Assembly (NCBI RefSeq): GCF_036588685.1
Contig: NC_086381.1
Span: 24,304,001-24,368,000, forward strand
Length of the DNA: 64,000 nt
Source of the DNA: Mytilus trossulus
Taxonomy: Eukaryota
Direction of reading: 5' to 3'
Each line of letters starts with the position of its first letter. Position 1 is the stretch's first letter. Made by a program: the position numbers and the translations under genes. This document shows positions 12,850-51,506 of the stretch, piece by piece. The notes below the pieces were generated by a model, which was given only the letters and a program-made list of their open reading frames with translations, was not told the origin of the DNA and did no database searches.

Positions 12850-13720
12850 TCTTAGATAACAATCTCTGCAATTTTGCAGAAACATTAGGACTTTTGAATT
12901 GTCTACGTTTTACAATACTATTCTACATGCTGAATTGAAAGATCGACTTCACCAACAGAGCCTTTTCTATAAATATGGGAATCGTAGATACAAATTTCTT
13001 GTTTTAGGTCATAATAATTCTTATTTTGTGAAGAACCACACTGAAAATACCAGAATACATACTGAGGACGATATTATCAAAATGCTTGACATTTTGATCG
13101 ACAATATATTTGTTGAGTTTGGAGGATTGCTATTTAAGACAGTCGATATTCCAATTGGTACTAATTGTGGACCCCTGCTAGCCGATTTGTTTTTGTATTC
13201 GTATATGAAGCATAGTTCATTCAGAACTTTCAAAAAGGCAAAAAGAAAAAGAAGCTTGCGGAATTCCTTAATTTAACTTATATTGATGATGTCCTATCAC
13301 TGAATAACCCATATTTCAGCCAATACTTGCATCTCATATATCACAGTTCACTTGGAATTGGGGATACTACTGATACTAGAAGGACTGCTTAAACCTTGAT
13401 GGTTTCCTTAATATTAACACAGATGGACGACTGCACACTATAATCTATGACACACGAGACGATTTCAACTTCCTAATTATCTATTTCACATTCTCAGCAG
13501 AAGCATACCATCTGCCCCCTCGTATGGCATTTACATATCTCAGTTGATACGTAATGCTCGTGCATGTTCACACTATACGGGCTTCATATACAGGAGTGTA
13601 CTCCTTACAAAGTTATGAGGAGGAAATATTAAAGATGACACTCCGTTTATTTTATGAACACCATCACGAATTGGTTGATCCATACGATATGTCCTTGTCT
13701 AAACTACATAATGACATTTT
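12850..13720 (+). mobile_element. Degenerate Penelope-like element reverse transcriptase
   Basis: Frameshifted motifs TFELSTFYNTILH, LIDNIFVEFGG, IPIGTNCGPLLADLFLYSY, YIDDVLSLNN, YDTRDDFNF, YGIYISQLIR.ARACS typical of bivalve Penelope-like RTs; followed directly by a hammerhead-family repeat. Confidence 0.8.
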
Positions 13721-14199
13721 TCCGCGTCTTAGATTATGGTTTATTATTCACGCCATCTGGTACCGAACATGACCTATTCCCGAATATGACTATTTTGTTG
13801 TGTGTGAATTCGCCGCATTGTTATAAGCCGTGTCACAACGGTATTTGTTATCCAACATTCATGTATTTAAATACTAAGCATTTGCATATCCCAGGCATAG
13901 ATAACCTTAGCCGTAATTGACACAACTTTTTGGAATTTTTAGTCATCATTGCTGTTTAACTTTATACTTGTTTGGCTTTCTTAATATTTGATCTGAGTGT
14001 CATCGATGAGTCTTAAGTAGATGATTTGTGCGTCTGGCGTATCACATTTTACGCAAGGTATCTTTGAAAACAATTAGCATGTCGAAATGTATTTTTGTAT
14101 TGCTTATTTGTTAGTGTATTTCTCTGTACTGAATGTTCTTGCATTTATTTTCACTGAAGTCTGTCATGTAGTATTGTCATTTTAGTGTTATATTTAACA

Positions 14200-14294
14200 T
14201 TGCAATTAAAGCGCGAGGTTTGAATAGCCACAAAACCAGGTTCAACCCGCCATATTTTCTTAAAATATCCTGTACCAAGTCAGGAAAACGGCAG
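14200..14294 (+). ncRNA. Degenerate twister-like motif (variant with GAGGU/UACC pairing)
   Basis: GAGGT...CAACCCGCC-ATATTTTcttAAAATAT-CCTG-TACCAAGT-CAGG; P3 and P4 intact, P2 imperfect. Confidence 0.5.
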
Positions 14295-15084: not shown

Positions 15085-15834
15085 TTACCATTTGAAATTA
15101 TCCTCCTCAGCATCGAAAGATACGGATAGATTTTTCTTTAGGTTGAGCGGGCGAGGTCTTGCATTACTGAGTGAAGAGTAATCTGGTGGAGGAGAGTCCT
15201 TTTCTTGTGGTCTCCATTTTGGTTGAATTATTGGCAACATTGAAGACAGTTTACACCTTTTCAGAAATGACATATCAGTTTCCTCTTGTGAATCTTCCTT
15301 TTCCACATCTCCAAAATTGTTTATTTTTTTAAAAGGATGAAAATTATCTTCCCTGAGCAAATATGTTTTAATTTGGTACTCCTGTAACTTCTTGTCCATG
15401 TAACTATCATTTTTAGAACTGAAAGTATCATGTACAGGGCGATTTAAGTCATACGGTGACGATTTATATTCTTTATAATCATATTCACGAATAGAATTCT
15501 CTGGTCCACCAATTGGAATTAGTTCTACATTTGTGTTTCTTCTGGGTTGTTTAATGGATTTCATTTCTTCGTGTTGATCTCTAGTTATGTAATTTGGCTT
15601 ATATTCTTTATACTTATGTTCATGAAAATTGTCATAAGAACGATGTTTTTCGTATAATTCATGAACTTTTTCGTATTCATGAACTCTATTATATTCTTGT
15701 ATATTTTTATTCACACGCAAATGTCCATTAAATGTAAAAATTTCGTATTCTGATAACCTTCTAGCAACATTGTCAAATATTTGTTGTTCCGGACCAACCG
15801 GATATTGAGCTATTCTAGGTCCTTTTCTCTCCAT
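15085..15834 (-). CDS. Uncharacterised low-complexity protein, paralog 1 (about 249 aa from first ATG; may be a terminal exon)
   Basis: 759-bp open frame in AT-rich DNA; shares FxPFKK and DMxFLKxxKLSSMLPIIQPKW with the 21166-21633 ORF; TTATTTGCAG acceptor-like site just upstream of the ATG. Confidence 0.7.
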   Translation of the reverse strand: MERKGPRIAQYPVGPEQQIFDNVARRLSEYEIFTFNGHLRVNKNIQEYNRVHEYEKVHELYEKHRSYDNFHEHKYKEYKPNYITRDQHEEMKSIKQPRRNTNVELIPIGGPENSIREYDYKEYKSSPYDLNRPVHDTFSSKNDSYMDKKLQEYQIKTYLLREDNFHPFKKINNFGDVEKEDSQEETDMSFLKRCKLSSMLPIIQPKWRPQEKDSPPPDYSSLSNARPRPLNLKKNLSVSFDAEEDNFKW

Positions 15835-16153
15835 TTCCTGCAAATAATATTTTGAGATAAAGTAACATCTTCTTGTGGTAACATTTTACAGTAAGTAACA
15901 TTCATTTTTTTCTTTAAGGGTGTGGGTTATTGCGAAAACATGAAGAAGACTTATAGGAATTGGGACGACTGAGAAAACATGAAGAAGACTGATAAACAAC
16001 ATCTGATAGTTCAATCTACTTTTTTGATGTTCTGTTATTACATTATTAGTCCAAAATTTCCCCATAATCGATTATTTTTAAGCGATCTCTACGATCTCGT
16101 CTGAGGTTGCATCACGTTATAAGTCAAACAGCAAATAGTTATCAAAGATACCG

Positions 16154-16264
16154 GGAGTCGATTTCACAAAAAAAAACTTACGACTAACATTGATCGTAAG
16201 TATACTGATTTGTTCATGACTTAAGACCAATCTTAGTCGTAAGTGTTTTTGTGAAATCGACTCC
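16154..16264. mobile_element. About 110-bp palindromic MITE inserted into a hammerhead repeat
   Basis: GGAGTCGATTTCACAAAAA...TTTTTGTGAAATCGACTCC; interrupts the GATACC|GGATT sequence of the host repeat. Confidence 0.75.
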
Positions 16265-16280
16265 TGGATTATAATTTAAT

Positions 16281-16324
16281 ACGCCAGACGCGCGTTTCGT
16301 TTACATAAGACTCATCAGTGACGC
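16281..16324 (-). ncRNA. Minimal type I hammerhead ribozyme (variant A, intact core)
   Basis: Minus: GCGUCA-CUGAUGA-GUCUUAUGUAAAC-GAAA-CGCGCG-UC-UGGCGU; one mismatch in stem II. Confidence 0.75.
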
Positions 16325-18092
16325 TCGGAACAAAATAGTTATAAAGCCAAACAAGTACAAAGTTGAAGAGCATTGGGGTCCCATAATTCCAAAGCCAAAC
16401 AAGTACAAAGTTGAAGAGCATTGGGGTCCCAAAATTCCAAAATAAAAGTTTCATGTTCCATACTTATCGAATAGTATAAGCGAATAAATTGATATGTTAA
16501 TTATTATATTTAATTTATAATGACTGATAAGTGAAGATTGCAGTATTTATGTAAGGACACACATATACATAAGATCGCAACTGTATAAGCGTTATAGACT
16601 AACAACCATTAAATGTAGAAAGATCTAAGAGTTATTAAGATATTTTTATGTAAAAAAAAACAAATAAAAACTGAAAAGTGTACGTATATATTTTCCTTAC
16701 TAACAAAAACAGAATTTTAAGAAATAATATCTCTCTATGTAATACTTACAAGACAAATACTACAGTTAACTCCACTTACATAATGAAGTGACGCAAAACG
16801 AAACAGTAAATATTTCAATGAATTGATCAATGACTCAGTTGATTGAAACTTGTTTGTGATTTCCTTCAGCAAATTCTCAAATTACCAATTATTGGTTTCA
16901 TTGTTAAGCACATAATTTCTCAAATTACAAGCGTACGTAAAGCATGATTGAATCAAGTTATTAGACAATACATAACCGATATAAACAATACAAATAATAA
17001 TGTTTGTTTCGCTTTTAATAATTTAAATTACGTTTAATCTATATTTCAAATATAGAATTGACTCTAGTTGGAAGGAAAACAAAATGGTGAACTAGCTCGA
17101 AATACATGCAATGTCCAAAATGTAAAGTCTTATTTTGCAGATGAAATACTTCCTCGAAAAAGTTTTGATCTGCCTACTTAATATTTTTACTACATCTCTG
17201 TTTATCTAGTTTCCAAGACAAAACGCAAAAACGTTAAAATTGGTCAAAATTGTCATTTACGGCGATACCTGCTTTCAAAAGTTGTCTGATTTTTTCCAGA
17301 TATCTACAGCAACGAATTTGGCACCAACATTATTTTTTCTGTAAAACTACTATACTTTTCGTGATAAAGACACTATCATGTCTTTTTTTCACCCTTTGTT
17401 CTATTATTACTATCTTGGCAGTTATATATGTTTGCTTGATAGCAGTATCATCAAATTTGATTATAACAGTGGACTCCCTCTGAACAAGTGTTGGTCCCAA
17501 TTGACTGGTATTTTCAAAAGATTCGACATTTTATGAGCTAAGAAATGAATACAGACAAAAATTAGGAGCAATCAGAAGTGGCACTGGTCCATTTGGCAAT
17601 GTTATCTTGAAACAAAAATAAAAAAGCAAGGTCTTATTTAGAAGATTGGAAGAGTAAAAATTCTGAAAAGAAGAAAAATAAGAACCCTTTAAAATGTATT
17701 GGAAATCGATAAAATGTGCAATTGTCTCGTCAGCTTTACTAGTCACGATGAATTTTTCCATGTTGTAAGTCTACAATAATAAGGTATTAGTTCGTACATC
17801 ACATACAATTACTGTTATGGTAAATGAAAATCAAAAACAGGTTAGACAGTACAACTAACAAATCATGCTATATCGTTTTTTATATAGACTAGACCGTTGG
17901 TTTTCCCGTTTGAATTGTTTTACACTAGTAATTTTGGGGCCCTTTATAGCTTTTTGTTCGGTGTGAGCCAAGGCTCCGTGTTGAAAATCGTACATTGACC
18001 TATAATGTTTTACTTTTATAAATTATCATTTGGATGGAGAGTTGTCTCATTAGCACTCAAATCAAATCTTCCTATATCTATAGACCGAACAT

Positions 18093-18488
18093 AATAGACC
18101 ATTTTCGAGTTCATCCGTCACCGGAAAAAACTCGTCAATTATACGCGCCTTTATCACCGTCATTTGTGCGTTTAGGGGCGTCGTCACTTCCTTCCAATGT
18201 TAAGCGAGTGGTTGGAAAACTATAATTCTATATTGTACGAATTATTCGGCAAATTGAATTCTCAAAATTGACAATCAACACTGCTGTCATTAGGGAATTG
18301 TCAGTAAGTACCTACAGAGCAACCATTATTTCTAGTTTATCCTGCACAAAGACGATCACTAAGACGCTTGATGAACGTAAATAGTGCAGGGATACAGGCG
18401 AGCCCCTCTATCTGGTAAATGACGTCATAAAGGCGTGCATAATTGACGAGTTTTTGCCGGTGACGGATGAACTCGAAAGTGGTCTATT
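18093..18488. mobile_element. MITE, about 395 bp (copy 2, inverted relative to 4097-4492)
   Basis: Same TIRs and internal sequence as copy 1 in reverse orientation. Confidence 0.85.
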
Positions 18489-19722
18489 GATCTACTATAG
18501 TTATAGTGTCTAAAGTAGGAACCTGATAATGAAAATGAGTCCAAGGTCAGTAAAAAAATCTGGGAAACAGACCTTTTAAGGAAAAAACCCCTAGCGTTGA
18601 CACATGACGATTATGATAAGGTCAAGTCAAATTATACTTGTCAGATCGAAATCTCTTAACAAATCGACGTTATCACTACCAGAATTCTTCTTCCCTTTCT
18701 TGAGTATGTAGCGTTATGCAAAATGTTTAAAACGTCAAATTAGTAACAACAATAAGAAAAAGACTACCAAACCATACATAAAGGAAGAACCGACAACAAT
18801 ATTACAGAAAAGAAAGGAAAAAGTAAAGTCCATAAAATATTCAAAGGTTGATCAACACAGAATTAAGACCTAGGATCATCTAACGCTGATGCTCCGGGAT
18901 GATTTCTGCTCCAACAACTGATGTGCGAACAAGAAAAGAAATGACTATGCATATCACATGACGTCAAAATAGATGCTACTTATAGCAGAGTTTAAAAAAA
19001 GTTCAGTAAGACGAAGTTTACCTTATTTGATGTATTTTTTTATTTTTCATTTTTTGTTTAAAATATTGAAATTTATAAAAACATATGTCGTAGAACTGCA
19101 TCTGAATATCGATTATCCAAGGAAGTTAAAATCGAAAGAAACATCCATAATGACTGAAAAATAAATGACCTTGGTATCTTTCATTCAAAGTGCAGGTATG
19201 TCAATTGAATAAAACATCTAAATGTTTGTCATGTCGCTTTTTCAGTTATGTAAGGTCACCATTCAACATTCTGTGTTGCAGTTGCCTTTTAGGTGAGGTT
19301 AAGGGAATTGTTTCAAACTAGAACATTAAACTAATAATTGTTTTTTTCATCAAGAACAACGAAATATCTAAATAAAAATTACTTCAGAATACAGATAATG
19401 GAACTGGATCAAATTGATAATATCTAAAAACGTGCCAGAAATCTATGTAAATACCAAGAACTTCAAACACTATGCCATAGGGTCTTATTTAAGAGAATTA
19501 GAACAGTTTTAGCGAGACAATATGTTATGAGTACTGTAGTATCCATTGCATATGGTTTCCGTGGAGGATAAAATAGACAAACGAAACCTTTTTTTTTTAT
19601 TTTCCATTAAGATTCTGATGGAAAATACTCAAATAGGAATAACATTTATTGAGATTGATCCTACCTTTGTCTTGCAAATACAAGAGTAGTCAAATATTAT
19701 TTTGTAATGTTTATTCACAAAA

Positions 19723-20508
19723 TTAAAATGTTGATCTTTTCAATGAATAAATATAGCTACTAATAAGAAGATCTATAGAATGAAAAGGATCTTCCAAAAT
19801 AGATTGCCTTTGTGAGTTTGCTCTCGTCACTTTATGATTATATTCCTTAGACGGACGATTACGTGGTGAAAATGATGATGTCTTTGGTTTCAGATCAAAT
19901 CTTGTCTGCTTTACAACCGGTAAAATTAAACGCGGTTTTGTTATCCTACTTATAAACACATCACTAGAATTCAAACTTGCTCGACGTTTCTGAGATCGCT
20001 TCGTAGGAGGTAACGGGTCCTTGGATTTAGTATGCATCACAACTGGTAGAACTACGGGAAGCGCGGGCTCGAGCACTGGCATTGTTTTATCAGTCGTTCT
20101 AATTGAAACTTTATCATCTGTCTTTCTAACCGAAACTTTATCATCGGTCTTTCTAATCGAATCTTTATCGGCCGTCTTTCTAATCGAATCTTTATCGTCT
20201 GTCTTTTTAACAGAAACTTTATCATCTGTTTGCTTTTGGGGGGATTTAGGCTTCTCCTGATTCTTGATTGAGGGCGTTTTAGTTGTTTTTTTCTTAGTTT
20301 CGCTGTCATTTTGTTTATTATTGCCGAATAAGTCATTATTTCCCTCAAACAGGTCGTTTTTTTTAAATGGATCGAAATTTTGCTTGTTTAGTTTATAAGA
20401 TTTCGGTCTTTCATATTCACGTGTCTTCTGTTGTATTGGATCTTCTAATTGAACGTCTAATGCATTGCGGTAAGAACTTAGATTATAAGGTTTAGGTTTA
20501 TATTCCAT
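19723..20508 (-). CDS. Uncharacterised Lys-rich low-complexity protein, paralog 2 (261 aa)
   Basis: Intronless 786-bp ORF; N-terminus aligns with the 21166-21633 ORF (NLSS...EDP...K.REY.RPK.Y...FDPFKK.DLFE); internal 9-aa repeat KTDDKVSIR. Confidence 0.7.
   Translation of the reverse strand: MEYKPKPYNLSSYRNALDVQLEDPIQQKTREYERPKSYKLNKQNFDPFKKNDLFEGNNDLFGNNKQNDSETKKKTTKTPSIKNQEKPKSPQKQTDDKVSVKKTDDKDSIRKTADKDSIRKTDDKVSVRKTDDKVSIRTTDKTMPVLEPALPVVLPVVMHTKSKDPLPPTKRSQKRRASLNSSDVFISRITKPRLILPVVKQTRFDLKPKTSSFSPRNRPSKEYNHKVTRANSQRQSILEDPFHSIDLLISSYIYSLKRSTF
20090..20230 (-). repeat. Coding 27-bp tandem repeat (KTDDKxSxR x5)
   Basis: In-frame repeat inside paralog 2. Confidence 0.8.
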
Positions 20509-21165
20509 GACGAACTTTATATGTCCATAATAAATAAAAGCAAACTTATTATTCCATCTTAATCTTTCTTTATCAAACAGTCATAATAAGTCTTGTTGAA
20601 ACAAATAGTATAATATTTCCTGAATTATTATCCAAAAATTCGCAAACTTTTCTACGATTTGCTACAAACTGTATCTAAATAAGTTCTTAACGTAATATGT
20701 TAGTTGATACTAAATCGCCTTGCATTAATATTCGATAAATATTTTTTTACAAAAAATGCATACGTGCGTTTCAAGTCTTGCAATCAGTTTAAAAATCGTA
20801 AACGCTCGCTAAATGTATGACGTTTAAAAGCATGTCATATCGATTAGGGAACTAATTATAGTCGTTCTTTCTGTGTTATTGTATTGTTATTGAGTTACTT
20901 GATTCGTCTTTTGAAAGGTGATCCCCACAATCTGAGTTTGTTTACGTTAGGTACGGTCAGGAACTGTAGGTGGCATGTTATTCCTGACCATACAAAACAA
21001 AATTAAAAAGTGATCTTCAAATTTGACTTTGTTTACGTTAGGTACGGTCAGGAACTGTGGTATGATCAGAAACTGCAGATGGTATGCTATTCCTGACAAA
21101 ACAAGTAAAAGAATTCGCGATAAGCTCACATAGCATTACAATTCAGTTTCAATTTACTGTTCACA

Positions 21166-21633
21166 TTAGGGATGTTGTATCCATTTTGGTTGAATAATTG
21201 GCAACATGGATGATAGTTTGTAGTTTTTCAGAAATTCCATGTCATCATCTTCATCATCTTCATCATTTTCTATGTCATTTGGCTTTTCATATTGTTCTTG
21301 CATTTCTAGGGGTGTCTGTTGCTTCTCTGGCATCTTCGGAGGATGTTTTGGTTCTTCTTGTTCTTGTATGGGCGAGTTTGTTGATTTGTGTTCCCTTTGT
21401 TTCTGTATAGTCATGGTTGTTTTATCTTCACGTTCATTCTCTGAACTGCTTTCATATTTTGGTTGCGTTTCCTCAAACAAATCTACCTTTTTAAAGGGAT
21501 CAAAAGCTTGGCTGGTGCTTGCATAAGGTTTTGGTCTTTTGTATTCCCGAGGTTTGTGTTCAAAAGGATCTTCTACTTTTCTATTAAATGTTTCTTCAAC
21601 AGAACTCAGATTTAATTCAGGTTTATCCTCCAT
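21166..21633 (-). CDS. Uncharacterised acidic low-complexity protein, paralog 3 (155 aa)
   Basis: Intronless ORF with both family motifs: EDPFEHKPREYKRPKPY...FDPFKKVDLFEE and DDMEFLKNYKLSSMLPIIQPKW. Confidence 0.7.
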   Translation of the reverse strand: MEDKPELNLSSVEETFNRKVEDPFEHKPREYKRPKPYASTSQAFDPFKKVDLFEETQPKYESSSENEREDKTTMTIQKQREHKSTNSPIQEQEEPKHPPKMPEKQQTPLEMQEQYEKPNDIENDEDDEDDDMEFLKNYKLSSMLPIIQPKWIQHP

Positions 21634-23034
21634 AATGTCTGTGGAGACTCGGTTACAAGATATTTAGTGGTAGTTTCTTTTTACTTTAAACGGATTGTCA
21701 ATATAATTGATATAATAGTAACTTCATGTGATAATCCTAATATCATTTCATTTCTCGAATAAAACTCATGAATACGTTGCTTGAAATTTCAAACGTTATT
21801 TGGAATGGTCGCACAGTCTCTGTTCCTAATAGTTCGAATAATTCTTTTTTTTCTGATTCCAAATCCAAAATGTTAGTTTGTTTTCATGTTGTTAGTAGAC
21901 AATTAATGATTTTTTTATAAACTATCCCGCACTTTATTCGTTAAATATTTATTTTCAGACTTCAACGGATTCACCTGATAAGTATCATATTTTCAAGTGC
22001 ATACTAAGCGGTAATCTATAAAATCTTCCTTTGTTTTATTGTGATATTAATAGTCCCTCTAAGGTCAAGTAACAATATATGGGTCATGTCACAGGATTTT
22101 CTACACAACTGTGGATTGGTAAATTTGACATAAAGATTAAGAAATAATAAAATACCATAGTTTTTTTTTTTTATTATTTTCTAAAATATTATTGAATGTA
22201 TTATTTTTGAAATAGATAAATAAGTATATGAAACATTATTAAAAGACGGTGTCAAAAATATTTTTTTGTTTCATGATAATGCATATTGTATATGGGTTGT
22301 GTTGAAAAAATAGGGGAAAATGACACAGAGGTCAGTGATATATTATGTAGAGTAATATATCACTGACAGCTGTGGATAGTTAACGTTGAATTGATAGTAA
22401 ATAGCAAATACAAGTTATTTGTAGTATACTAATGTTCTTATGATACAGAAAAACGTGATAATAATTAAAACTGAGAGAAGACAAAAAAAAAAAGATTTTG
22501 GAAAAAATGCGAAGGCAGCACAAATCTGTCCTGTCCCCTAGTACCTTTGTTTCATAATAATAAACATTATAAAAGTGAATGCCTTTTATATGAATTTGGT
22601 TAAAAAGAGGGGGGAATGCAACAGTTGAAAAATTCACCCATCTGTAGGTTTAAAATTATTTTGTTATCTTAAAAATATTTCTTATTCAAATATTTTTTTC
22701 CCAGTATTAAAACATTTCTTCCTTCTTTTTAAGGGTGTGCGTGGGGGAGATTATGAGAAACAAATCCCATGTAGACAAAATTGTATTTACTATTTCTGCC
22801 TATACATACATTCTTGCAAGCGATGATAATAGAATGTGTCTACGCAAAAAAAAAATAACTGAATTCTTCTTCGATAAAAATGCGATGAACGCAGCATATT
22901 TTATATGAAGCGCTTTCAACACTAATAACATACAAAACAACTCTTAAAGTTACATTTGTATGCTGCGGCCATGAGATTGAAAGTTATTTATAGTTTGGTT
23001 TGGTTTCTTATTCCTCGTTGTGTTAATTTATAAA

Positions 23035-23590
23035 AGGTACCAGTCTTAATACGCCAGATGCACGTTTCGTCTACATAAACTCACCAGTGACGCTCATATC
23101 AAAATAGTTAGAAAGCCAAGCAATTACATAGTTGAAGAGCATTGAGGACCAAACATTTCTAAAAAGTTGTGCGAAATACGGTAAATAAACTCATTATAGA
23201 TACCAAGTTTTGCCAAATACAGCTAAGGTAAGCTATGCCTTAGGTAGAAAAGCCTTAGTATTTCAAAAAATTCTAAAATTTGTAAACAGTTAATATATAA
23301 ATATAACCATATCAATGATAGTTCATGTCAGCACCAAAAGCGCTGACTACTGGGCTTGTGATATCATCGGGGAAATAAATCTCCACCAGCAGTGGCATCG
23401 ATCCAGTGGTTGTAACTCATCATATATATCATGACTAAATTTTGTAATACGCCAGACGCGCGACGTATGCCTAGTATTAGAAAATCCTTTGTATTTCGAA
23501 TAGTTCATATACTTTTTCAAACAGTTGAATTATAAATTGATCATATTATTGATATTCATGTCAACACCGAAGTGCTGACTACTGGGTTTG
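23035..23590 (-). mobile_element. Tandem hammerhead-bearing repeat (about 1.4 units)
   Basis: Mutated hammerhead at 23051-23093 (CUGGUGA), hammerhead 3' remnant at 23449-23462, two copies of the hairpin motif (23325-23348, 23558-23580). Confidence 0.7.
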
Positions 23591-26409
23591 GGTCATAATA
23601 ATTTTATTGGAAAATAAAATCTAATGTTGTGTCTCGCGATTGTTAATTTTGATTTTGGTATATAGAGTGGAGCGTCTTGTTTTGTGAGGATGTTTGGTCA
23701 ATCATCTTTTGAAAATTATCATATTCAGAGTGTATTTGGAATGCTCGACGAAGTTTTACTATTGTACACTGAGTTTATTATTAATGAACATCTGTTATGT
23801 TCCGAATTTTCATAAATATAACTAACTAACAGTAACTGGCCGATTTATAATATTTTAATTCATTTTATTCTATGCAGTTTGCTGCTGAAAAGAGATTATA
23901 CAAGTTGAAATTGTATGGCTAATTTTACTAACTGCTGTAACAAATTGCACAAAATTTACTCAAACTATATTTAGTTATTTTGTTTTTAATACATTGTTAA
24001 ATCTAATATACTGTATTTGTCTTTTTGTTTTCTATAGAATATTTTTTTCTAAATATTGATATTTAAGGGGAGATAATAGCGTGTATTTAAACAGCACTAA
24101 AGTAAAATTCTTTAAGAAATCAAACTAAACTAAACGTTTCTCATCATAATAAAATAATTAAGAAACCCATTTAAGTGTATATATATGTTGTGACATCATT
24201 TTATCCAAAATATGATTTGTACAAAAAAAATCGTACACGTTATATTTTGTTTCATACAAATTGTAATATGTACAAAATTCACTTATAATTAGTACAGAAA
24301 ATTATCGTATGGATTTTATCATACAAAAAGCATTGCAACTATAGAATTTTTATTCAATGACCACTTAATAAACATTATCGCTATTTTGTGCATTTTTCCT
24401 TTGATCTTTTTTTGTGATAATTTTCATATCATGCTTCTGGCTTGAGATGGAAAAATTATCGCTAGAAACTAAGGAGGCCACGTGGCGTTGCTAACGAAAT
24501 TGACTTTGAAATTGACAACGTCGTCATAGGTAAAATAGCGATAAGCAGATTATCATTGGTCATCTCAACTCGATTGCTTTTCTCACTTTCGCTGTACCAG
24601 CTGAAGCGAGAAAATCAATGTCGTTGAGATAATCAACGATAATCTATAATTATTTACAAAACACAAAAAATATATACATGATACATGCATTCATGCCAGT
24701 ATATATTCCGAGAGTGATAGTACAACAGAAATTGGCCCCATGCAGTGATAATTCTGATGTTATAATGTAAAATGACCTGGATAACAATTCTGATAGTATA
24801 AAAGACTTAATTGGCCCCAGTGATTATTCTAATATTATAATAGAAATCGAACCAAGTGACAATTAGAATTACACTGACGTTGAAACGCCAATCATACGTG
24901 CCAGGAACCGTGCGCTGTCTTGCCAACTGATCTTAGCCGAATATCTAACGAAGGAAACGATAATGTCATTATACCAATTCCTAAGTATGATATTGCCCCA
25001 ATTGATCAACGAAATATTTTATGTGTAACTATTAGAATGTGGGTACCGCGTTGGAATATAGCTGTAGGAATTTTTAACAGGATATTTTATAGAATGTAGC
25101 TGTTAAAGATTCATTTTCATTCGCAGCTTCGGTTTCTGAGGTTCAACTTTCTCTACGTGAAGCAGATAAAAAGTTTTTAAACATTGGTGATCAACGATTT
25201 ATTTCATGTAAATGACAAGAGGAAGCATTGAGTACAATTCTCGATGCCATATGTAATTCAACAAGTGAACATACTCAAACAAATGATGCAGCACTATTCG
25301 TGTATTTTGTAAATAATGGTTATTGGGTGATAATTAAATACAAATTATACAGTTTGTATCAATGTTGTTTTACAACAAAATCCATATTGTAAACTATCGT
25401 ATAAGTTATAAGTGAATTTTTAAAAAAATTGTACTAATTCTTATTTTCTCACTAGGAAGATATATAATGAAATTAATCTAAAAAGAAGTCTATGAGATTG
25501 TGTGCCCAGTTAGTAAACTCACGAGAGTATGGATTGGAAGTGTTTACGTGAATGCATCTCGTTCGCTGATTCTTTCGAGACTACTGAACTGAACTGAACT
25601 TATATTAAATTGACCGTTCCAGCTCAGAAAATTGTGAATTACATTGTTTTTTCTTCTATATTGAACTACCGTTAAACGGACATCATGACGTTTAGAATAT
25701 CAAAGATTCATTACATATAATCCACGCGAGGAACATGTTCAAAAAAGTTCCTTCAAAGAATAAAGGCACATTCAATAATCCGACAAGAGAGCCAGGAAAA
25801 GCAACAATAAGTAAACATAGAATCAAACAGAAAGACGACATTCCAGCAAAAGTACCTCCAAGAAGAATATCTCCTTTAAAAATGTTGAGAGATTGAGGAT
25901 GAATTTAAGAAGAACGTATTGACAAGTCCAATATACCCTTAACGTCAGCCTTTGTGTTTGTGCAAAATAAAGATCATTTGTGGCGGCTATGTGTTGATAA
26001 CAGGACATTTTAATGATAAGACGATCAAAGATGTGTATTCGATACCTAGACTAGAGTACACACTGAGTGGATCTTAGTGAATTTTAGTTTTGATCCTGAG
26101 TATGGCTAATCACGAGATGCCTATGAATCTAGCAGCGTCCGAAAAGATTGCGATTTCTACAGCCAGATGTGGTTTATAGATAAAGGAAGATGTGGTGTGA
26201 GCGCCAATGAGACAATTCTCCATCCAAATAACAATTTATTAAAGTAAACCATTATAGGGCAATGTACGGCCTTCAACACGGAGCTCACAACAAACAACAA
26301 GCTATAAAGGGTCCTAAAATTACTATTGTAACACAACTTTTTTGGAATTTTGGATCCTCAATGCTCTTCAACTTTGTACTTATTTGGCTTTATAACTATT
26401 TTGATATGA

Positions 26410-26453
26410 GCGTCACTGATAAGTCTTATGTAGACGAAACGCGCGTCTGGCGT
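26410..26453 (+). ncRNA. Minimal hammerhead (variant A) with core mutation G8A
   Basis: GCGUCA-CUGAUAA-GUCuuauguaGAC-GAAA-CGCGCG-UC-UGGCGU; perfect stems but CUGAUAA instead of CUGAUGA. Confidence 0.65.
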
Positions 26454-26590
26454 ACTAAATTATAATCCTGGTACCTTTGATAACTAAAGTTAAACATTTC
26501 AAACGGCAAAACCAACGGTCTAATCTATATAAAAAAGAGAAACGAGAAACACGTATAAATTACATAAACAAACGAAAACCACTGTTTATC

Positions 26591-26657
26591 AGATTCCTGA
26601 CTTAGGACAGGTGCAAACATTTGCAGCGGGATTAAACGTTTTAATGGTACCAAACCT
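26591..26657 (-). ncRNA. Twister ribozyme remnant (5'-truncated, UCCUAAGU loop)
   Basis: Minus: ...UGGUACCA-UUAAAACGUU-UAA-UCCC-GC-UGCAAAugUUUGCA-CCUG-UCCUAAGU-CAGG. Confidence 0.6.
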
Positions 26658-26659
26658 AC

Positions 26660-27480
26660 CAATATGTTACAATTTCATTTTGGATTATGTAACGGAGGAG
26701 CTTGGCATGTTCTATGTTTTATTACCTAGATGGCATATAGTGTTTAGTAAAACAGTGGATAAAGATATGGTTAATTTGAAAAAACTCTCTCAGGGGTTAA
26801 TAGATGCTTGATTAAAACTTATTGCAACAAAGAGTTGTTTTTCAAAACATGAAGTAGCTTATCCCGGACTTATTGTGTCAACAGAAGGATTTAGATGGGT
26901 CCTTCAAGGAAGTGGTAAATAGTCAGGATGGATCCACTATCAAATGTTTCCGAGTCGTTCATTGGACTGGTGTTTTTAAAGAAGAATAATGAAGAATTTT
27001 TCATAAATCATCAAGTTCTTTATGACTTATTCTAGTTAAAACTCATGGGAATTGACAAATGATTATAGTAAAAGCTTTCCGTTTACTAAAGAAATGCTTT
27101 TATCCTTCTGTACTTGCACGTTTAAAAATTATTGGAAAAAAGTTTACATTGAATAAAGATGAGAGTCATTTGGGATCGGATCAGTCTTGTCTCAAGTTCA
27201 AAAAAGACAAATAAGGTTATTGATAATAATACTCAGGCAGAACTGTAAGCAAAGTTCAACAGAATATTGTGTAATCTGTAGTTTATTTCATTACATATTT
27301 TAGAAATAATTTTAATTGGTCGTCGTTTTGAAATGTGAGTGGATTACAGTTCACTTAATTGACTTTAAAAATTTAAAGACCCTGACGGCTACAACAACTT
27401 TGCAGTCTTGATTTTAAGATTGTGTACAGACCAATCGCGAAGCATGGAAATGCAAATTCACTTTCTAGAAATGTTTTCGA
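26660..27480 (+). mobile_element. Highly degenerate Gypsy/Ty3 pol remnant (RT-RNase H)
   Basis: Broken motifs EVAY.GLIVSTEG, GIGSVLSQV, RTVSKVQQ.YCV, DYSSL..L.KFKDPDG, YRPIAKHGNANSLSR. Confidence 0.6.
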
Positions 27481-27985: not shown

Positions 27986-30900
27986 TCAAAGCCAAAATTA
28001 TGAAATCCGAAGTACCGAAAAGAATAATTCACATGAGATAATATCATAGAATATATATAATCATATAAAATATCACAACATAAAACAATTTGTTATTGTT
28101 ATTGTTATTATTTATTAGTTGGTTTAATTCTTTTAAAGTTGCATATCTTATATAAGAAAATTAAGAAGAGGAAAAGAGAATAGCTGGACTACACGTCCAT
28201 TGTGAATATTATTGAGAGTAACGTTACACAACATAGTACGTATTAGCAGTACGGAAGCATAGACGACAATTTGATTTTGACTAGTAATAGGGAAAAAATA
28301 AAATCACAAAAATACTGAAAAATTCAAAAAAGGAAAGTCCCAAATCTAATTGTAAAATAAATCAACAGCATAAACACATCAAACGAAATGATAACATCTA
28401 TCATCCTCTTGACTTGGTACAGACATTTTCTTAGGAAATGGAAGTAAATTTTAGAGTAAATTTAACACAGATCTATCTGATTTGTGTAAGTGACAAAACA
28501 TAATTTTACCTTCATCAGGTACGCTCGAGACCATTGATTACTCGGAAAAAATCAGTGATGAGACACATTTAATGAATTAATGTTGAGGTATTATAGTTGT
28601 CAATAACCTTTGAATATTTCCTTTTCGAATAAAGTTCAATAATTATTATTAAAAATATATATATCATATTGCATTTTAACTTGATTAATTGTTGGGTTAG
28701 GAACAACAATTTTCCTCATACAGAAAAAAATCTTTTTTTCTTAATTGAGTCAATATCAGGGGAGAAAACTCTGTCACATTATGTATTTCGATATATAACC
28801 ATATATACATATCATCTGGGATTATTCATCAATATATTATGTCTCAGATATCATATGTATATAGTGTTACATTGAGAGATGTATAATGTCTACAAACATG
28901 TTATTCATAATTTAATAACGAGAGGCCTATCAAGATCTATCAAGTCTCACGCATTTTCATGATTATTTGACTGTATTTTGCTTTGATCTATTGTTTTATT
29001 TTCTCTTTGATCCTTACAATTTTGTCAAATCTCACACATTTGAAAAGCTCTGTAAGTGGCGGTACCGAAGAAGTGACACATTAATTACTTTTAATTAATA
29101 ATAGATTACTTTGATAAACAAACAAATCAATCCAGCTGGAGCTAAACTTATAATTCCTATAATGTTTTCAATATTTTCCGTGTGACAAATATTATGAATA
29201 TTGATTTTTATACTTCCATGGTTTATTTTCCTTCACGTTTTCTTTGTTCTAACATTATTTCGCCTAGAAGCACGATTCGAAGAATTTACTAGAAAAGTAC
29301 TGCCATTAGTAAGAATTTTGTTTATAAAGTTTTGCAAAAATGTGTTTGTTTTTATATTGGGAGAGTTTTTTTGTGTTCACAATAACATTTTATTTATTTT
29401 ATCATAACACTAAGTCAGTCACCTTAGCAAAGATTCTTCATGTTTACATGATAGCACGGGTTTTTTTCTGCAGATCTTGAAAGAACATTATATAAATATT
29501 AGTTATGAAAGAGTTTTATTTTCTTGTTGTTGTTGTATACTAGTATATGATTAAAAGACAATGTATGCTGCAGAGGCTTTGATGTGTTTTCAAAGGGATT
29601 TATGAAATTTTGTATTTTGTTAGACTAAATAACACTTTGGTGCACTATTCTTGGCGAGCATAATGTAGGTTATAGTTCTTGTTCACACTTTATTAAGAAA
29701 AGGGTCAAAATTGATAGATTAATTTTACTGATATATCGTCTGAGAAAGAAGAAGAACTTATTTGATAATAAGCGATATTACAGAATATTTACTAAAAAAT
29801 AATTAAACACACACTTTTTTATTTTAGAAAAAAAACCATGAATATTCTAAAAGCACCTATGGATGAATCGTGTTTAAAAATGATTAAAGACTGTTTCTTT
29901 ACAAAAATAATCTAAGACTTTAAGATTACAAGGGTCTAACAAGATTATCATAACGTAATAGCAAATATGGCCGTGTACGACTTATTAAAAGTTATATGTA
30001 TCAAATAGTTCGTTTGTATGTTTGTTGGTATTCTTTTTTGTCGCACTACAGTGTTCCTCGCCTGTTGTTCCTTTGTTTGCCTCTTAAAGTTCTCCTACTT
30101 TTATTTTGTTTTCTCTCAATTGATTTATGAATTTTGAACACCGGTATACTAATGTTGCCTATCTTAATTTGTATAGAGATTAAGCTGAATCATAACCAAA
30201 CTGGTTACTTATAAAGCCGACATTTACTGAGTTGAATGGAATGTTAGAAGTTATAGCAGTTATACGTTGTGTTAGGTTGGGGATGCTGGGAATCGTCTCT
30301 CATAAGTATTTAATTAAAAAAGATGTCGTCAGATGTCTACAAGCTTTTATGGTATGATGAAGGTGGCTATGAAGTGTGGATAATAATTTGTTTTTGAACG
30401 ATACAAAATGTAACAATTTCCTTATTTGGCCATTAATGTCAGGATAGAGATCCCTGAATGGTTGAATATATCTTAAACACATTCACATATAAATGCTGAC
30501 CTAACTCGACATTGTTTGCCTATATAAAAGCTGTACTAAGCTTGGAATGATACGTCTCACCATGTCGACAAAGATTCAATTGGACAAGTGCTTGACAAAA
30601 GCTTCTTTATAAACAAAATTATATGCCCTAGTAAAAATGTTGGTCCAATGTATCATGTTTAACTTTGAATGTCTTCCCATAGTACCATAGAAAATTGTAA
30701 AAGAAAAAATCTACCTGAATTGAATTGAGATAAATCTCGGTATTTGCATTTTAAGGAGTCAAGAGATATCAGTATAGAAATTCCATTGTAACAGTGCAGA
30801 AAATCCTATAGAAGAAGATTCCAATGAAAAACATCGTTCAAATTAAACATTTGAAAAAAGAAATACAAGTGTTAAATTTAATGGATCTTGTAAAAGCCAA

Positions 30901-33348: not shown

Positions 33349-36300
33349 ATGAAATTGATTTTATTTTTCACGGCAACATTTGTGTCGGCTTCTCTGGCTG
33401 TAGTTGATCTAAATGGTCAATGGAATCGGTGGAAAACTGACTTTGACAAATATTACAGTACTTCAGAAGATGAAGCTAACAAGCGTGCCGTGTGGGAGAT
33501 GAACCTGGAATATGTTAATGCACACAACAATGATGTACAATCAGAATTCAGATTGGCAATGAACGAATTTGCTGACCAGGTGGGTTTTTATGTTATTGTA
33601 TTTAAAATGTGAACCGTACATAGACGTAACCATAACCCCAAAACGACTTCCTCTGATAGTAATATTCATAAATTGTCTTCGTTGGGGGACAACATAGCAT
33701 TTTTAATTGTCATCTTTAGAACTAAAGAACTAAACTCCGGACACTATTAACAAAAAAATATCAGCAAATATTGATCTTCAAATGAGATTACTAGTATATA
33801 TAATTAAAACGCATATTGGCATTGATATAGTGATGATTAACTTGTTGGTGACATTTGAATTTAGATGTGTCGGGAGGGGGGCTTTGAAACTCCAAAAATT
33901 ATACTGAATCTATTGGTAAGCTACATAAATTTTAAAATTTTAATTGAGAAAAAAAAATCAAATTGTAAGTGAATGATCGAGTCTCTATTTCAAAAGTCAA
34001 AAAGAAGATGTACTTAGTATTTCATATTCTTCGCTTATTAGTTCAATTTCTTCAAGATTGGAACCTGTTAATTTTCAATTATGACGATTGCACATTATTG
34101 TGTATAAAAACGCGTTCCGGCGTTCTTTTGTTACTATCTTGGGTCAGTTGTTGGCGGTGGTTGCTGTCTGTCATGATGTTCAAGTTTTCGTTTGTTATTT
34201 TGGCATAGGTCGCACTGATGTTTTTTCTTCTTTTCTTCTTTTCACATTGGGTCTACTCGTATGTGGGTCCTTTATAGCTCACTATACGGTATGTGTTTTG
34301 TTGAATGTTGATTAGCGTGCCGTGTAATGCATACAAATCAGGAGACGCTTATCCCGTTCCCGGTCTTCTTTCCATGTAGAGTTCATGTGATTCCTTTAGT
34401 TTTAGTTTGTGTTTTTTTTTTTACCTTCTTCTTTTCTCTTCGACAGATTTCCGAAAACCTATCACTCATCGTGAGAAAAGAAATATGCTTTAATTTGATC
34501 TCCATTAAACAACTGTCCACTAATTTTATAAACAAAGCCAGTCGGATCATTTGGTGTCAGCATGACGAGTCTAATTATCTCATTGGGAATCACATCACAT
34601 ATTCTTTTTTATATGTCATAAATACTTGATTTATCATTACAGGAATCACCAAAACGTCCACATATTAAAACTGATTCTGAAAGAGAGTATGAAGAGATTG
34701 AACACAATTGGACTTATTTACCGTCTACTTTTGATTGGAGAACAAAAGGTGCAATAGGTCCTGTGCAAAATCAAGGACAGCTGGGACAAGTACTTTCAGT
34801 TGCAGCTATAGGTGATATTCTTGAAAAATTCACGCTACTATCTATATTCTATATCAATATCACTGTGTGCTTCTTAAAATCTAGTGCATTTTAAATTTGA
34901 TTTGTTATGATTTGATTTGACATTTTTAAAAACAAGTGAAAAGTGTTAAGTGCAATTGAATAGGGGTCAATATAGATGGAATGCATCTTTAAAACATTTT
35001 AAAATCTAAATCTACAACTTGATTTGAAGAAAAATCCCAAAACAACTCTACGCTTAACATTTTTATTCTATATCCATATCAATGTGTGCTACTTAACATC
35101 TAGTTCACTTTAAAAAAAAGTTTGGTTTCTCTTAAGTGTGAGTTGTTTTGGGGATTTTTCTTCAAATCAAGTTGCGTGATTTTGCGTTTAATAGATGTGT
35201 TATGTAAGATGTCTTTAAACAAGAAGTATTTTTTTCTCATCCTACTTTTTTTTATTTATTTCAAAAAGCTCAGACAAAGTATTTATATTCAGGGGAGCTG
35301 AAGATTTAGATTTTAAAATGTTTAAAAGATGCATTCCATCTATATATTAACCCCTATTCAATTGTACTTAACACTTTTTCACTTGTTTTTAAAAATGTCA
35401 AATCAAATCAAATCAAATTTAAAATGCACTAGATTTTAAGTAGCACACAGTGATATGAATATAGAATAAAAATGTCAGTATGAAACCTGAAAAAAAAGTA
35501 TTCACTAATGTAACAATAGCCTGTGTGCAATTGATACGATATAATTCACCAAATGTTATAGAACTGAACATGACGAAGAATTAAACTGTTTTTTTTTTCT
35601 TTTTTAACACAGAAATTATGGAAAGCTATGAATTTATAAAAAGTAGACGTTCGATTCCATTAAGCTTGCAAGAAGTGGTGGACTGCTGTACTCATGGGTC
35701 TGAGTTGGTGACACCAGTGTTTAACTGTATACATAATATAGGTGGTCTGTGTTCAATGGCAGATTATCCAACGCATGGTCCAGCTGGACAGTGCAGAAAC
35801 ACAAGCTGTACGTCCGTTGTACGGGTATGTTATTCCCTATCATGTATACTAGTTTTCAATAGTTCAAACAATTCATAAGTTTTGCATTTTTTTTTTAAAT
35901 AGTATAAATAAGAGACAAGAATTTCTTTCATTGCTTATAAACTCGTCATAGATACCAGGACTAAATTTTGTATATACGACAGACGCGCGTTTCGTCTACA
36001 AAAAACTCATCAGTGACGCTCGAATCCAAAAAAGTTAAAAGAGGCCAAATAAAGTACGAAGTTGAAGAGCATTGAGGACCAAAGTTCCTAAAAGTTTTGC
36101 CAAATCCAGCTTAGGTAATATATGCCTGAGGAAGAAAATCCTTAGTATTTCAAAAAATCAAAATTTTGTAAACAGTTGTGCAAGCCACGTTTTACTACAA
36201 TGTTAAGATATCAATAAACATCATAGATGTTTGCTAATTCTAAAATAAAAACTTTATAAATTTACTTAGTTAAAAAATATAAAGTTTGTCTTGGAACTTC

Positions 36301-37153
36301 TTTACATAACTGTTTTTTTTTTCGATTTCAGAATATGGGCACAATGGCGGTTGCAGAAGGAAACGAAGACCAATTACAGATAGCCGTGTTACACTTTCCA
36401 GTAATGGCAGTTATTGATGCTAGTCTTCAGTCATTTCAGTTGTATCGATCTGGGGTCTACGATGAACCAAAGTGCAGTTCAACAAAACTTGATCATGCGG
36501 TTCAGATCGTCGGATATGGTTCTGAAGGTGGAAAAGATTATTGGATCGTCAAAAATAGCTGGGGTATGTTTTTTGTAGGCCTGGATAAGGCTTACAGATT
36601 ACAGAATGTTGGGTCATGAACACAAAATTAAATGGGATAAGAAACAAATAGAGAAAAGAAGGTCTGCAAATAGATAACAGAGAACTACGGAATACAAGAA
36701 ATTATAAAGAAAATGCATGAATGGTCATTTATAAAATAAATGTAGGATCCCTTTCTAGAGGCTCATATTTATAATAATTATCAAAGGCACCAGGATTATA
36801 ATTTAGTAAGCAAGTGCATCAAACGGATGTCGATATTTGTATATTCTGACTATTTACATAAAGAATCTTATAAAATTATTTCATGTAACTGATGTCTCAC
36901 GCTATTCCGGTAAAATTTACAATATCATATCAACACTGATTTTTTTTTAAGAAAAGACCCTGAATTTTATTTCAATTGTCATTCTCTTTTAAAAAATCGA
37001 AACACAGCAGTGATGTAAAGCAGCAAAATAGTGAAACAGAGAATAATTTTGTATGTTTTAGGTGTAAACTGGGGAATGCAAGGTTACATACTAATGAGAA
37101 GAAATAAGAATAACCAATGTGGTATTGCCTCTGATGCCACCTATCCTGTATAA
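33349..37153 (+). CDS. Cathepsin L-like papain-family (C1A) protein, catalytic Cys replaced by Val (probable pseudoprotease), 311 aa
   Basis: Exons 33349-33579, 34643-34811, 35613-35824, 36332-36563, 37062-37153; all GT-AG, phases 0,1,0,1 consistent. Signal peptide, I29 propeptide (ERFNIN-like E-R-W-N-V-N, AMNEFAD), [32 protein letters not shown]. Confidence 0.92.
34843..35468. repeat. Long nested inverted repeat (foldback) in intron 2 of the cathepsin-like gene
   Basis: 34843-35012 is the reverse complement of about 35302-35468; inner arms 35015-35057 / 35131-35173. Confidence 0.8.
35976..36019 (-). ncRNA. Minimal type I hammerhead (variant A, intact core), antisense in cathepsin intron 3
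   Basis: Minus: GCGUCA-CUGAUGA-GUUUUUUGUAGAC-GAAA-CGCGCG-UC-UGUCGU. Confidence 0.7.
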
Positions 37154-37394: not shown

Positions 37395-39381
37395 AAATAC
37401 TATTATGTGTGAAAGCCTTTGGTTTCAGCTATCCTGGTTGTTGGTTAACACATACTGGTAGCTTTTCCTAATATGTTATCCTCATTCAAATAAAACTGAT
37501 AGTAGCCAATGTTTTTTTATTAATAAAAAAAAATAGGGAATGTGTCCATGGGACACAGATGGTGCCTCCACTTGTATATCATATAAAGTTATAAAGGGGA
37601 CAACATTGTAAAGGGATATATCTCTTGAACGGTTGAAGTGACACCACCAAACACCACCATTGATCTGTAGTTTGTGGCAATAAGCATTGTGTATAAGTTT
37701 TGATAACATTTGGTCGAGACAAAACAAGAGTTATAGAAGAGAAACAAAAAAATCAGCAATTTTTCATATGTAAAGTGGCATAACTCTAGAATGTTAAAAG
37801 GGATGCTACCACAATTCAACCATGATCTGTGGTTTGTTGTAATAAGCATTTTGTATGAGTTTCATAACATTTGGCTGAAGCAATTAAAATAAGGGGAACA
37901 GAACGGAAACCAACTTTGGGACGTACCTACATACAGACAAGGTTAAAACTTAATGCTCCGCCCGTTCCGTGGGGGCAAATAAATCAAAAAGTGCACAAGA
38001 GGCTAGCAAATAGCTTTACTTGCCTAAATATGTACCACCTACGACATTGCAAAGTTTAATAACATCACTAATGTCAATACCTACTACAAACTAATCTAGA
38101 GAGAGGTCCGGTGGTAAATACAATGGAACAGACACCAAGAACTACATACAGGAGATAACATTAATAAGATGAAAGCAACTGTCAAGAATATTTGGGTTTT
38201 GATCCTTAATCTAAGAAAGTCCAAAGTAAGTAAGTACAGCCAGTACCAGTATGGATACTGTTCCAGTATCAAATAATTTTCTAGCCATGATACTACATGG
38301 TACCATTAATCAAATTCTGCAATTGACAAATACAGAATTCATTAGAGGGCTTTCAGAGACGCAACCTTGACTTGATTTTACAGATGTATATGCTGAATAA
38401 CAAGAACTGTTGGGACTTTGTTTCTGATTTCATATGAAACTCAATGAGAAGGTTGATAGCACCTGGCACACTGGATAAACAGTAATCCAGAATGCTCCAG
38501 AATGCTCCGAAACCAGTTGGGAAGAAAATACAAAAGTATACACACAAACTTATACCACCAAAATGAGGCTTAAAAGGAGTCAATAAGTGTTGTTTTTGGT
38601 GGATGTTTTTAGTAAGTTATTGTTGGCTTTGAACTAGATTTCAGAAACTGTGAGTCAACTCAGATCATTGTGTGTCTTCAGTCTTTTGATTGTTTTTGAT
38701 TTTTTATTTAGCTTTGTGTCGATCTAATGAGTGTAGTTAATTTAAACTGATTTTTACAGTTTGATCTTATGTTGAACTGTAACAACACTGTCCTATATTT
38801 GGGGTAAAAAAACATGTTGAACCCAGCAACATTTTGTATATATTATGCCTGTTCCAAATCAGGAGCCACTTATTCAGTTATCATTTGTTTTTATTGTATC
38901 TCATATATGTTTTTTTACATCAATCAGGCCATTGCCTTTCTAGGCTGAACTGTTTAAATTTGTCACTTTTGGCCTTTTGCATTTCTATGCAGTCTTTTCC
39001 TCATTGTTCAATAGATATAGGAAGATGTGGTGTGAGTGCCAATGAGACAACTCTCCATTCAAATAACAATTTAAAAAGTAAACCATTAAAGGTTAAAGTA
39101 CGGCCTTCAACACGGAGCCTTGGCTCACACCAAACAACAAGCAAAGGGCCCCAAAATTACTACTGTAAAACCATTCAAACGGGAAAACCAACGGTCTAAT
39201 CTATATAAACAAAACGAGAAACACGTATATATTACATAAACAAATGACAACTACTGTACATCAGATTCCTGACTTAGGACAGGTGCAAGGCTGCATAACA
39301 ACCTATTGTTTCTATCATGGTCATATGGTCCCTTGTGGATAGTTGCCTGAATTGGAATCAATTCATGGTTTTATTTGTTTA

Positions 39382-51356: not shown

Positions 51357-51506
51357 ATTTTAGTTAAAGATAATTATCTAAAAGAAAGATAAAATTGAAA
51401 TTGATTATTCAAATAAAATTTCATCTGATGTTAGGCAGATTAAACATGTTAGCAGGATCCTGACCCTCCCCCTAATCTGGGACATCAAGTTCATTACTAG
51501 TCTGCA

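Follow-up and report, generated by a model that had tools for sequence, protein, structure and literature searches.

A type-P5 twister fold with two palindromes in place of P1 near the 3′ end of Naiad Penelope-like elements

A 64,000-nucleotide stretch of Mytilus trossulus DNA (contig NC_086381.1, positions 24,304,001 to 24,368,000; hereafter the window) contains seven short sequences that resemble the core of a twister ribozyme. What is this fold, what are the repeats that carry it, and what might it do for them? An earlier note, centred on the copy at 26591-26657 on the minus strand, had described the carriers as otherwise unrelated families and proposed a radiation of twister-bearing retroelements in this genome. 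The surrounding animal DNA is AT-rich, contains many repeats and has exons scattered through it. Its exons include one of a papain-family protease at 36260-36619(+) (PF00112) and, labelled by eye, FG-rich nucleoporin-like exons at 48031-49790(-). Three related long open reading frames (ORFs) occupy 15085-21663(-); the two that were tested gave no Pfam match. A 396-nt element with 65-nt terminal inverted repeats is present in two copies, 97% alike (4097-4492 and 18093-18488), and arrays of 135-162-nt repeats lie at 44044-46460.

All seven sequences were found in the window. They were scored with a covariance model, R1, which we built from 12 sequences including the copy at 1.4 kb. Six of the seven sites were significant (E 5e-26 to 2e-5): 1415-1486(-) with 95.6 bits, the best score by construction as this is a training sequence, 26594-26665(-) with 47.9 bits, 14208-14286(+) with 32.5 bits, 38797-38865(+) with 31.0 bits, 51430-51475(-) with 27.6 bits and 39266-39312(-) with 25.0 bits. 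The site at 28.4 kb was not significant alone with R1 (9.9 bits, E 0.47); its 159-nt tail aligns to a related locus, L075, at 69% (E 9e-5). The P4-L4-P4 core occurs five times in the window, compared with none in each of 100 first-order Markov resamples. No twister was detected at E ≤ 1 when the whole window was scanned with Rfam. In a scan of a 201-nt stretch, the 1.4-kb copy matched the Twister-P5 family RF02684 with 23.3 bits, below the gathering score of 37.6; this was the best RF02684 score in the Rfam scans of the window and related loci, and the gathering score was reached nowhere in them.

The only complete type-P5 twister in the window lies at 1404-1496(-), as identified by reading of the fold, R1 and Rfam, and belongs to the family designated A. 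Along the minus strand it consists of P5′ (1496-1488), P2′ (1483-1480), the catalytic G (1479), T1′ (1477-1474), a first palindrome (1473-1464) and a second palindrome (1462-1453). The predicted cut falls between 1453 and 1452, and P2, T2, P3, P4/L4 and P5 follow in order. The general arrangement, P5′, P2′, G-A, T1′, linker, Y|A-A, P2, T2, P3, P4/L4, P5, is the type-P5 permutation, with P2, P4, L4 and the two pseudoknots T1 and T2 all present. The general-base G and general-acid A (N|A cut) are found in the family consensuses and in the 1.4-kb and 14.2-kb copies, and wherever a family consensus or representative has an intact 5′ half, it retains both the catalytic G and the cut-site A. A P1 stem closing the cleavage loop is absent from the Naiad fold. 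T1 has just 2 bp in several families, P2 has 3 bp and a bulge in B-type families, and predicted monomer folds, by a method that ignores pseudoknots, sequester the T1′ strand in alternative helices. The motif is thus a twister-type variant, which has the core features and lacks both P1 and an Rfam score above threshold. We regard it as almost certain that Naiad elements carry at their 3′ end a circularly permuted twister fold of type P5, and the conserved residues suggest that this fold is probably active in vivo. An HDV-like reading was rejected on inspection, as there is neither a P1.1 GG nor a P4 after the closing stem.

A pattern scan of metagenome contigs yielded at least 123 loci. Among the matches listed, 118 of which are distinct, 96 fall into nine families (A-I), four form a type-P1 group and 18 are likely chance. 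The type-P1 twisters (L020, L039, L084 and L089) lie at the 5′ edge of another repeat and share the P4/L4 sequence of the Naiad fold; two of them score 38.1 and 28.7 bits with RF03160, no reverse transcriptase (RT) was seen downstream of the one in L039, and they are possible relatives of the P5 form. Viral contigs gave no pattern match, and no RT relative was found among 219 viral candidates. Three loci among the matches listed have long intact upstream DNA, and each carries a Penelope-type RT ORF on the same strand, ending 359 nt (L025), 712 nt (L040) or about 130 nt (L052) upstream of the fold. L025 belongs to the family of the 1.4-kb copy and L040 to that of the 26.6- and 39.3-kb copies. 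An autonomous partner, for which the earlier note had advised a search, therefore exists and is Penelope-like. Among the matches listed, an RT ends at a similar distance in four family B loci (L011, L045, L058 and L114); other family B copies have RT matches elsewhere or on the opposite strand, and no upstream RT was found in any copy of families D and E.

The RTs have the features of Naiads. The DKA motif is present in L025, L040 and a locus described below, L126, and CxC in L025 and L126. The Pfam RVT_1 match is weak (15-20 bits), and the elements have no C-terminal endonuclease domain. N-terminal GIY-YIG-like motifs were seen by eye in L126 and L052, where Pfam and PDB searches gave no match; the contigs of families A and C end before the N-terminal region. 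L025 and L040 have an in-frame UGA after DKA, in the position described for clam selenoprotein Naiads (PMC8557442), with SECIS-like matches that score 30.9 and 28.4 bits, short of the 35-bit threshold (L025:1018-1082(-) and L040:1927-1984(+)); another such match lies at L090:563-627(-). Copies vary in their 5′ reach and are fixed in their 3′ reach, which is the 5′ truncation expected of Naiads, and the fold lies about 120-280 nt from the element 3′ end, downstream of the ORF. The RT ORFs of these Naiads are 46-68% identical to each other, and the tails of two families are 68% identical. The families are therefore not unrelated, as had been claimed: their shared parts are homologous Naiad 3′ ends. 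The RT-bearing relatives, together with the homologous tails, indicate that the window repeats are 3′ remnants of related Naiad Penelope-like families, about five at the seven sites.

The state of the window copies fits such remnants. The complete twister is part of a 5′-truncated family A 3′ end at 1185-1522(-), which shares 93% identity with the L025 3′ UTR over 355 nt. At 14200-14294(+), a near-complete mutated twister, with a P2 mismatch and a broken first palindrome, lies in the 3′ UTR of its own decayed Naiad-type RT, a remnant with frameshifts and stops at 12878-13721 on the same strand. The 26.6- and 39.3-kb copies belong to one family, C (87%). The focal copy at 26591-26657(-), which the earlier note had taken as a core, is recognised by R1 (47.9 bits, as above) but is 5′-truncated: it starts abruptly at 26657, inside the ribozyme, at T1′, and lacks P5′, P2′ and the catalytic G, although it retains palindromes at 26652-26645 and 26641-26634. 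Full copies of the family C twister, in L040 and L092, carry the missing P5′, P2′ and catalytic G-A, and the focal copy is evidently a dead fragment. The whole family C remnant, 86-90% identical to L040, extends over 26169-26657(-); it is split at about 26334-26480 by an opposite-strand repeat that carries a hammerhead. A further family C remnant, 39011-39288(-), begins inside P3 and is 94% identical to L040. The copies at 38.8 and 51.4 kb both match L122, L063 and L034 (family F): the former, 38797-39008(+), is decayed, with most of the 5′ half lost, T2 broken and the second palindrome retained; the latter, 51434-51484(-), is a 5′ half with both palindromes perfect (10 and 8 nt), which stops about 11 nt past the predicted cut. 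A strongly decayed P3-P4-L4 with tail at 28289-28441(-) represents another family. Tail-only pieces were found at 46807-47035(+) (family A, without ribozyme), 53625-53704(+), 17873-18085(+) (family C) and 2806-3049(+) (family F).

The hammerheads of the window belong to a separate inserted repeat and not to Naiads; no hammerhead match was obtained in L025, L040, L052 or 11 loci fetched by RT and scanned. This repeat carries a minimal type I hammerhead with a loopless palindromic stem III, which scores 26-31 bits with RF00163, below threshold. Rfam placed copies at 16281-16324(-), 26410-26453(+) and 35976-36019(-), decayed copies lie near 9890(+), 14000(+) and at 23064-23087(-), and two copies are inserted inside Naiad 3′ ends.

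The association was also approached from the RT. An RT alignment containing no ribozyme information fetched 22 loci (L124-L145), which lie in prokaryotic assemblies, most likely as contaminating animal DNA. Five short loci were excluded, and the other 17, on 15 contigs, were searched with R1. Eight loci on six of the 15 contigs gave matches (E<1e-4), which lie 145-414 nt past the RT match and on its strand; the match in L124 belongs to the upstream unit. The nine contigs without an R1 match comprise three with little or no true 3′ flank, two distant outgroups, three with another 3′ motif (by eye) and one with neither. L124-L127 contain tandem head-to-tail units (pLTR), which were not observed in the families represented in the window. 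The fold is found once per tandem unit in L125-L127, at spacings of 3838, 3759, 3838 and 3541 nt, and each unit has before the fold a SECIS of 42 bits, above the Rfam gathering score. A long ORF in the L126 unit contains in-frame UGAs and the N-terminal GIY-YIG-like stretch. In an RT tree of 18 rows, twisters occur both in the UGA-type group (support 100/99) and in the group of L052 and L130 (98/97). Two variants were noted: at L128:1751-1814 a second partial twister, with different T2 pairs, follows the first by 125 nt, and the twister at L133:6124-6189 lacks P3 and has an L4 of 9 nt and a palindrome of 12 nt.

The comparison of pairing covered 73 copies aligned to the model, which came from 72 sources: 71 of the at least 123 loci, plus the window. 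In families whose palindromes are shorter, plain MAFFT moves the 5′ half over by one column, so pairs were counted on a model-fitted alignment, A5; it still offsets family C by one column and contains four type-P1 and two likely chance loci. In A5, 83.8% of cells were paired, compared with 76.1% in shuffled and 33-39% in slid alignments. The covariation score was 0.251 against 0.143 for shuffles, none of 500 of which scored as high, and double changes occurred in 13 of the 17 pairs. The rows are related and partly decayed, so that shuffle counts are not probabilities, and P4, the AAGY of L4 and part of P2 were preset by the search pattern and are not independent evidence. For these reasons the comparison between families is the better evidence. 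T1 is GGG/CCC, AGG/CCU, GGU/ACC or GAG/CUC according to family; T2 is GC/GC, GC/GU, AC/GU or CC/GG; P2 is GGGG/CCCC, GGGA/UCCC, GUGG/CCAC or GUGC/GCAC; P4 is CCUG/CAGG, ACCG/CGGU, GCCG/CGGC or CCCG/CGGG. P5 is wholly different in sequence between families. Its pairing exceeded all 500 shuffles in six of 13 rows, including families A, B, D, G and H, was reached by three of 500 shuffles in L040, and was indistinguishable from shuffles in families E and F, the short L092 and the 14.2-kb and 26.6-kb copies.

P2, T1, T2, P3, P4 and P5 therefore change in a compensating manner between families. The earlier note had pointed to a pseudoknot partner that changes together, as is the case for T1 (GGG/CCC at 1.4 kb, GGU/ACC at 14.2 kb). 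It had also held that P3 stays paired with different sequence; P3 does covary, but a 6-bp P3 at 26.6 kb would leave a 2-nt loop, so that 4-5 bp are formed there. Its invariant P4, CCUG/CAGG, is fixed in mussel-type families only, with the paired changes listed above elsewhere. To judge from these comparisons of sequence, the fold is a real, structurally selected feature. That the resemblance is due to chance, or to plain repeat homology with no selected structure, is scarcely credible: the Rfam scores under threshold and the 18 likely chance matches among the 118 listed speak for it, and it would have to account for compensating changes in six helices and for the out-of-sample recovery of the fold by way of the RT.

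The absence of P1 and the two conserved palindromes had been overlooked in the earlier note. The linker from T1′ to the cut is about 21 nt long and holds two self-complementary stretches of 8-10 nt. As a monomer it forms little or no hairpin (0 to -2.1 kcal/mol), and its halves pair with each other weakly or not at all (+0.4 to -3.8 kcal/mol), while each pairs strongly with itself. The palindromes are family-specific in sequence, and even three copies within family C have different centres (GGGCCC, GGAUCC and GGUACC), each self-complementary. The self-duplex energy of the linker was reached by at most four of 1000 shuffles in 11 of 14 rows of the first set; the signal was weak in family B (37 of 1000), family H (L052; 63 of 1000) and the 14.2-kb copy (169 of 1000). 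For five families obtained by way of the RT, an out-of-sample set except for L130 (family B, already in the first set), the numbers were 3, 14, 4, 0 and 10 of 1000; the linkers of L126 and L125 are identical. Perfect palindromes of at least 8 nt occur in 3-5% of background windows. Over all decayed copies the first palindrome was 77-81% paired and the second 60%, and for the latter 448 of 500 shuffles had as many double-change pairs. In the families examined, the second palindrome runs precisely up to the scissile pyrimidine, a place normally taken by the P1 strand. On the evidence of the linker sequences, two family-specific palindromes replace P1, and they define a twister variant that is missed by Rfam.

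How might such a ribozyme work? We consider it fairly likely, and the best explanation of the data, that a type-P5 twister in Naiad 3′ UTRs cleaves itself to give unit-length RNAs, with the palindromes pairing copies. Given the conserved G and A and both pseudoknots, cleavage would take place at the Y|A step, and tandem or read-through Naiad transcripts would be cut once per unit, a role like that proposed for hammerheads in canonical Penelope-like elements (PLEs) (PMC6765202). In these hammerheads stem III is palindromic and cleavage probably occurs in dimers (PMC6765202). By analogy, two Naiad twisters may form a strand-swapped dimer with the second palindrome as a shared P1 helix; whether a dimer is needed for cleavage, or regulates it, we judge at a little under even chances. 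Cleavage of monomers would also be possible, as P1 is dispensable in the natural twisters tested and imperfections in it do not lower cleavage (PMC11662667). The palindromes might then pair RNAs for a dimeric RT-endonuclease, or be bound at the DNA level, while the twister cleaves as a plain monomer. We think this unlikely. It agrees with the tolerance of P1 imperfections just mentioned, with the predicted dimeric state of a PLE protein (PMC11167929) and with a variable 10-nt palindrome, seen by eye, in the non-twister 3′ motif of other Naiads, but it leaves unexplained why the second palindrome stops exactly at the scissile pyrimidine, and self-complementarity that is independent of sequence would suit RNA pairing better than recognition by protein.

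Both halves of the ribozyme are present in genomic copies; the template that was copied had therefore either escaped cleavage at its 3′ ribozyme or been ligated again, as in a circle. In one RNA-seq run (7073 records on L025) read starts and ends did not accumulate at the predicted cut; coverage was on both strands and followed the DNA gradient, and fragmented libraries would hide such ends. No RNA data set was among the matching sequencing runs listed. An anole PLE of canonical type inserted in vitro without any need for hammerhead cleavage, and RNA ends at the hammerhead site were not found (PMC11167929). These findings, the lack of effect of hammerhead mutants included, together with the abundance of published Naiads that lack the fold, would suit a fold kept as a signal for protein binding or template recognition, with cleavage negligible or irrelevant to retrotransposition. 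We consider this improbable, however, since the catalytic G and cut-site A are kept in all families with an intact 5′ half while the stems turn over completely. Self-cleavage in Naiad 3′ UTRs remains our preferred reading. At least two RT lineages, and both clams and mussels, have kept at the same position a fold of self-cleaving type that is structurally unrelated to the hammerhead, which speaks for selection on cleavage in Naiads.

A last alternative is that the twisters are small selfish elements resembling retrozymes, which hitchhike on Naiads or constitute separate non-autonomous families. That ribozymes may parasitise PLEs is an idea put forward by Craig et al. (PMC8557442), families D and E have no upstream RT among the matches listed, and the separate repeat with type-P1 twisters has an identical P4/L4 sequence. 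Against this, the fold occupies a fixed place behind the ORF and SECIS and occurs once in each tandem unit, and the variable 5′ and fixed 3′ reach of copies is that of truncated retrotransposon ends; short non-coding monomers were not found, and Tandem Repeats Finder detected no array at the seven window sites. We regard hitchhiking as very unlikely. If the ribozyme is instead an integral part of the Naiad, as we favour, a more speculative and rather doubtful extension is that the twister is an obligate dimer: cleavage would be triggered only by the encounter of two ends from one family, for example in a tandem transcript, and the unit RNA would be circularised and copied by rolling reverse transcription to yield the partial tandems typical of PLEs. 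Were this true, two unrelated ribozyme classes would have converged on one copy-counting dimer switch in PLEs. The palindromes in any case predict a dimer mechanism that we did not find described for the twister class, and RNA processing by PLEs becomes testable with an RNA of 90 nt.

The fold is not confined to mussels. By eye, it ends five of 11 published bivalve Naiad consensuses in the supplement of PMC8557442 (Mgal, Bpla, Mphi, Scon and Mmer), all five with the twin palindromes. Two of the window tails resemble the Mgal consensus by eye, which points to a mussel as the likely host and agrees with the abundance of type I hammerhead repeats in the window (PMC7229834). Five others, two of them identified by file order, end in a different 3′ motif, and one has neither; the fold is thus not present in all Naiads. 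The proposed radiation of twister-bearing retroelements stands in so far as the source is a radiation of retroelements, but it is not specific to this genome, as the same fold ends Naiads of clams and other animals. The different motif occurs in the published consensuses of oysters, ark shell and pearl oyster and includes a variable palindrome of 10 nt. Inspection by eye placed a decayed copy at about 34312-34380(+) in the window, and the motif also in L139, L141 and L142. It may be an unrecognised ribozyme, and is an obvious place to look for a further one.

In the literature covered by title, abstract and passages, with most subscription papers outside it, no link was made between twisters and Naiads or other PLEs and no twister dimerising through palindromes was described; such sequences may stand unlabelled in published twister lists. 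The word twister does not appear in the parts seen of a 2026 preprint on retrozymes and PLEs, or in the main text of Craig et al. 2021 (PMC8557442), according to which Naiads lack canonical hammerheads, suggesting that ribozymes may be dispensable or parasitic in PLEs. The Naiad fold has in common with RF02684 (clan CL00120) the order of its elements, the G-A that follows P2′, a Y-A-A at the cut, P2, P4, L4 (NNNNAAGY), both pseudoknots and P5 as an open stem. It differs in having two self-complementary stretches of 8-10 nt and no P1 hairpin, in a T2 that is often AC/GU or CC/GG, in a score below gathering, and in that cleavage is predicted only. The elements share with the Naiads of Craig et al. 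(PMC8557442) the DKA and CxC motifs, the lack of a C-terminal endonuclease, 5′ truncation and tandem units, and L025, L040 and L126 share with the clam selenoprotein Naiads the UGA after DKA and a SECIS. The Naiads of that paper are described without a twister, and in its text selenoprotein Naiads come only from clams and spiders; they appear to occur in a mussel-like genome as well.

RTE elements are known to carry twisters at their 5′ end (PMC7761336); an example is Perere-3 of Schistosoma mansoni, where twister variants occupy that end (PMC8501958). Perere-3 and the Naiads have in common a twister tied to a retrotransposon and an unusual P1. In Perere-3, the target-site duplication supplies a P1 strand (PMC8501958); the Naiad fold, in contrast, is of type P5 and lies not at a 5′ edge upstream of an APE-RT ORF but downstream of the ORF, near the 3′ terminus of a Penelope-like element with a putative GIY-YIG endonuclease, with both halves copied. 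Metazoan non-LTR retrozymes (PMC7229834) are also ribozyme-bearing repeats in mussel DNA, but they are described as non-coding hammerhead tandem units of 150-400 nt, whereas Naiad folds are the ends of coding elements of 3.5-4 kb. A further parallel is offered by the minimal hammerheads of type I that lie in pLTRs of canonical PLEs (PMC6765202; PMC8557442): in both, a ribozyme lies at the repeated end of the element, one per tandem unit, and a palindrome takes the place of a stable closing hairpin (PMC6765202). The ribozyme class is another, however, and the Naiads are a different clade of PLEs.
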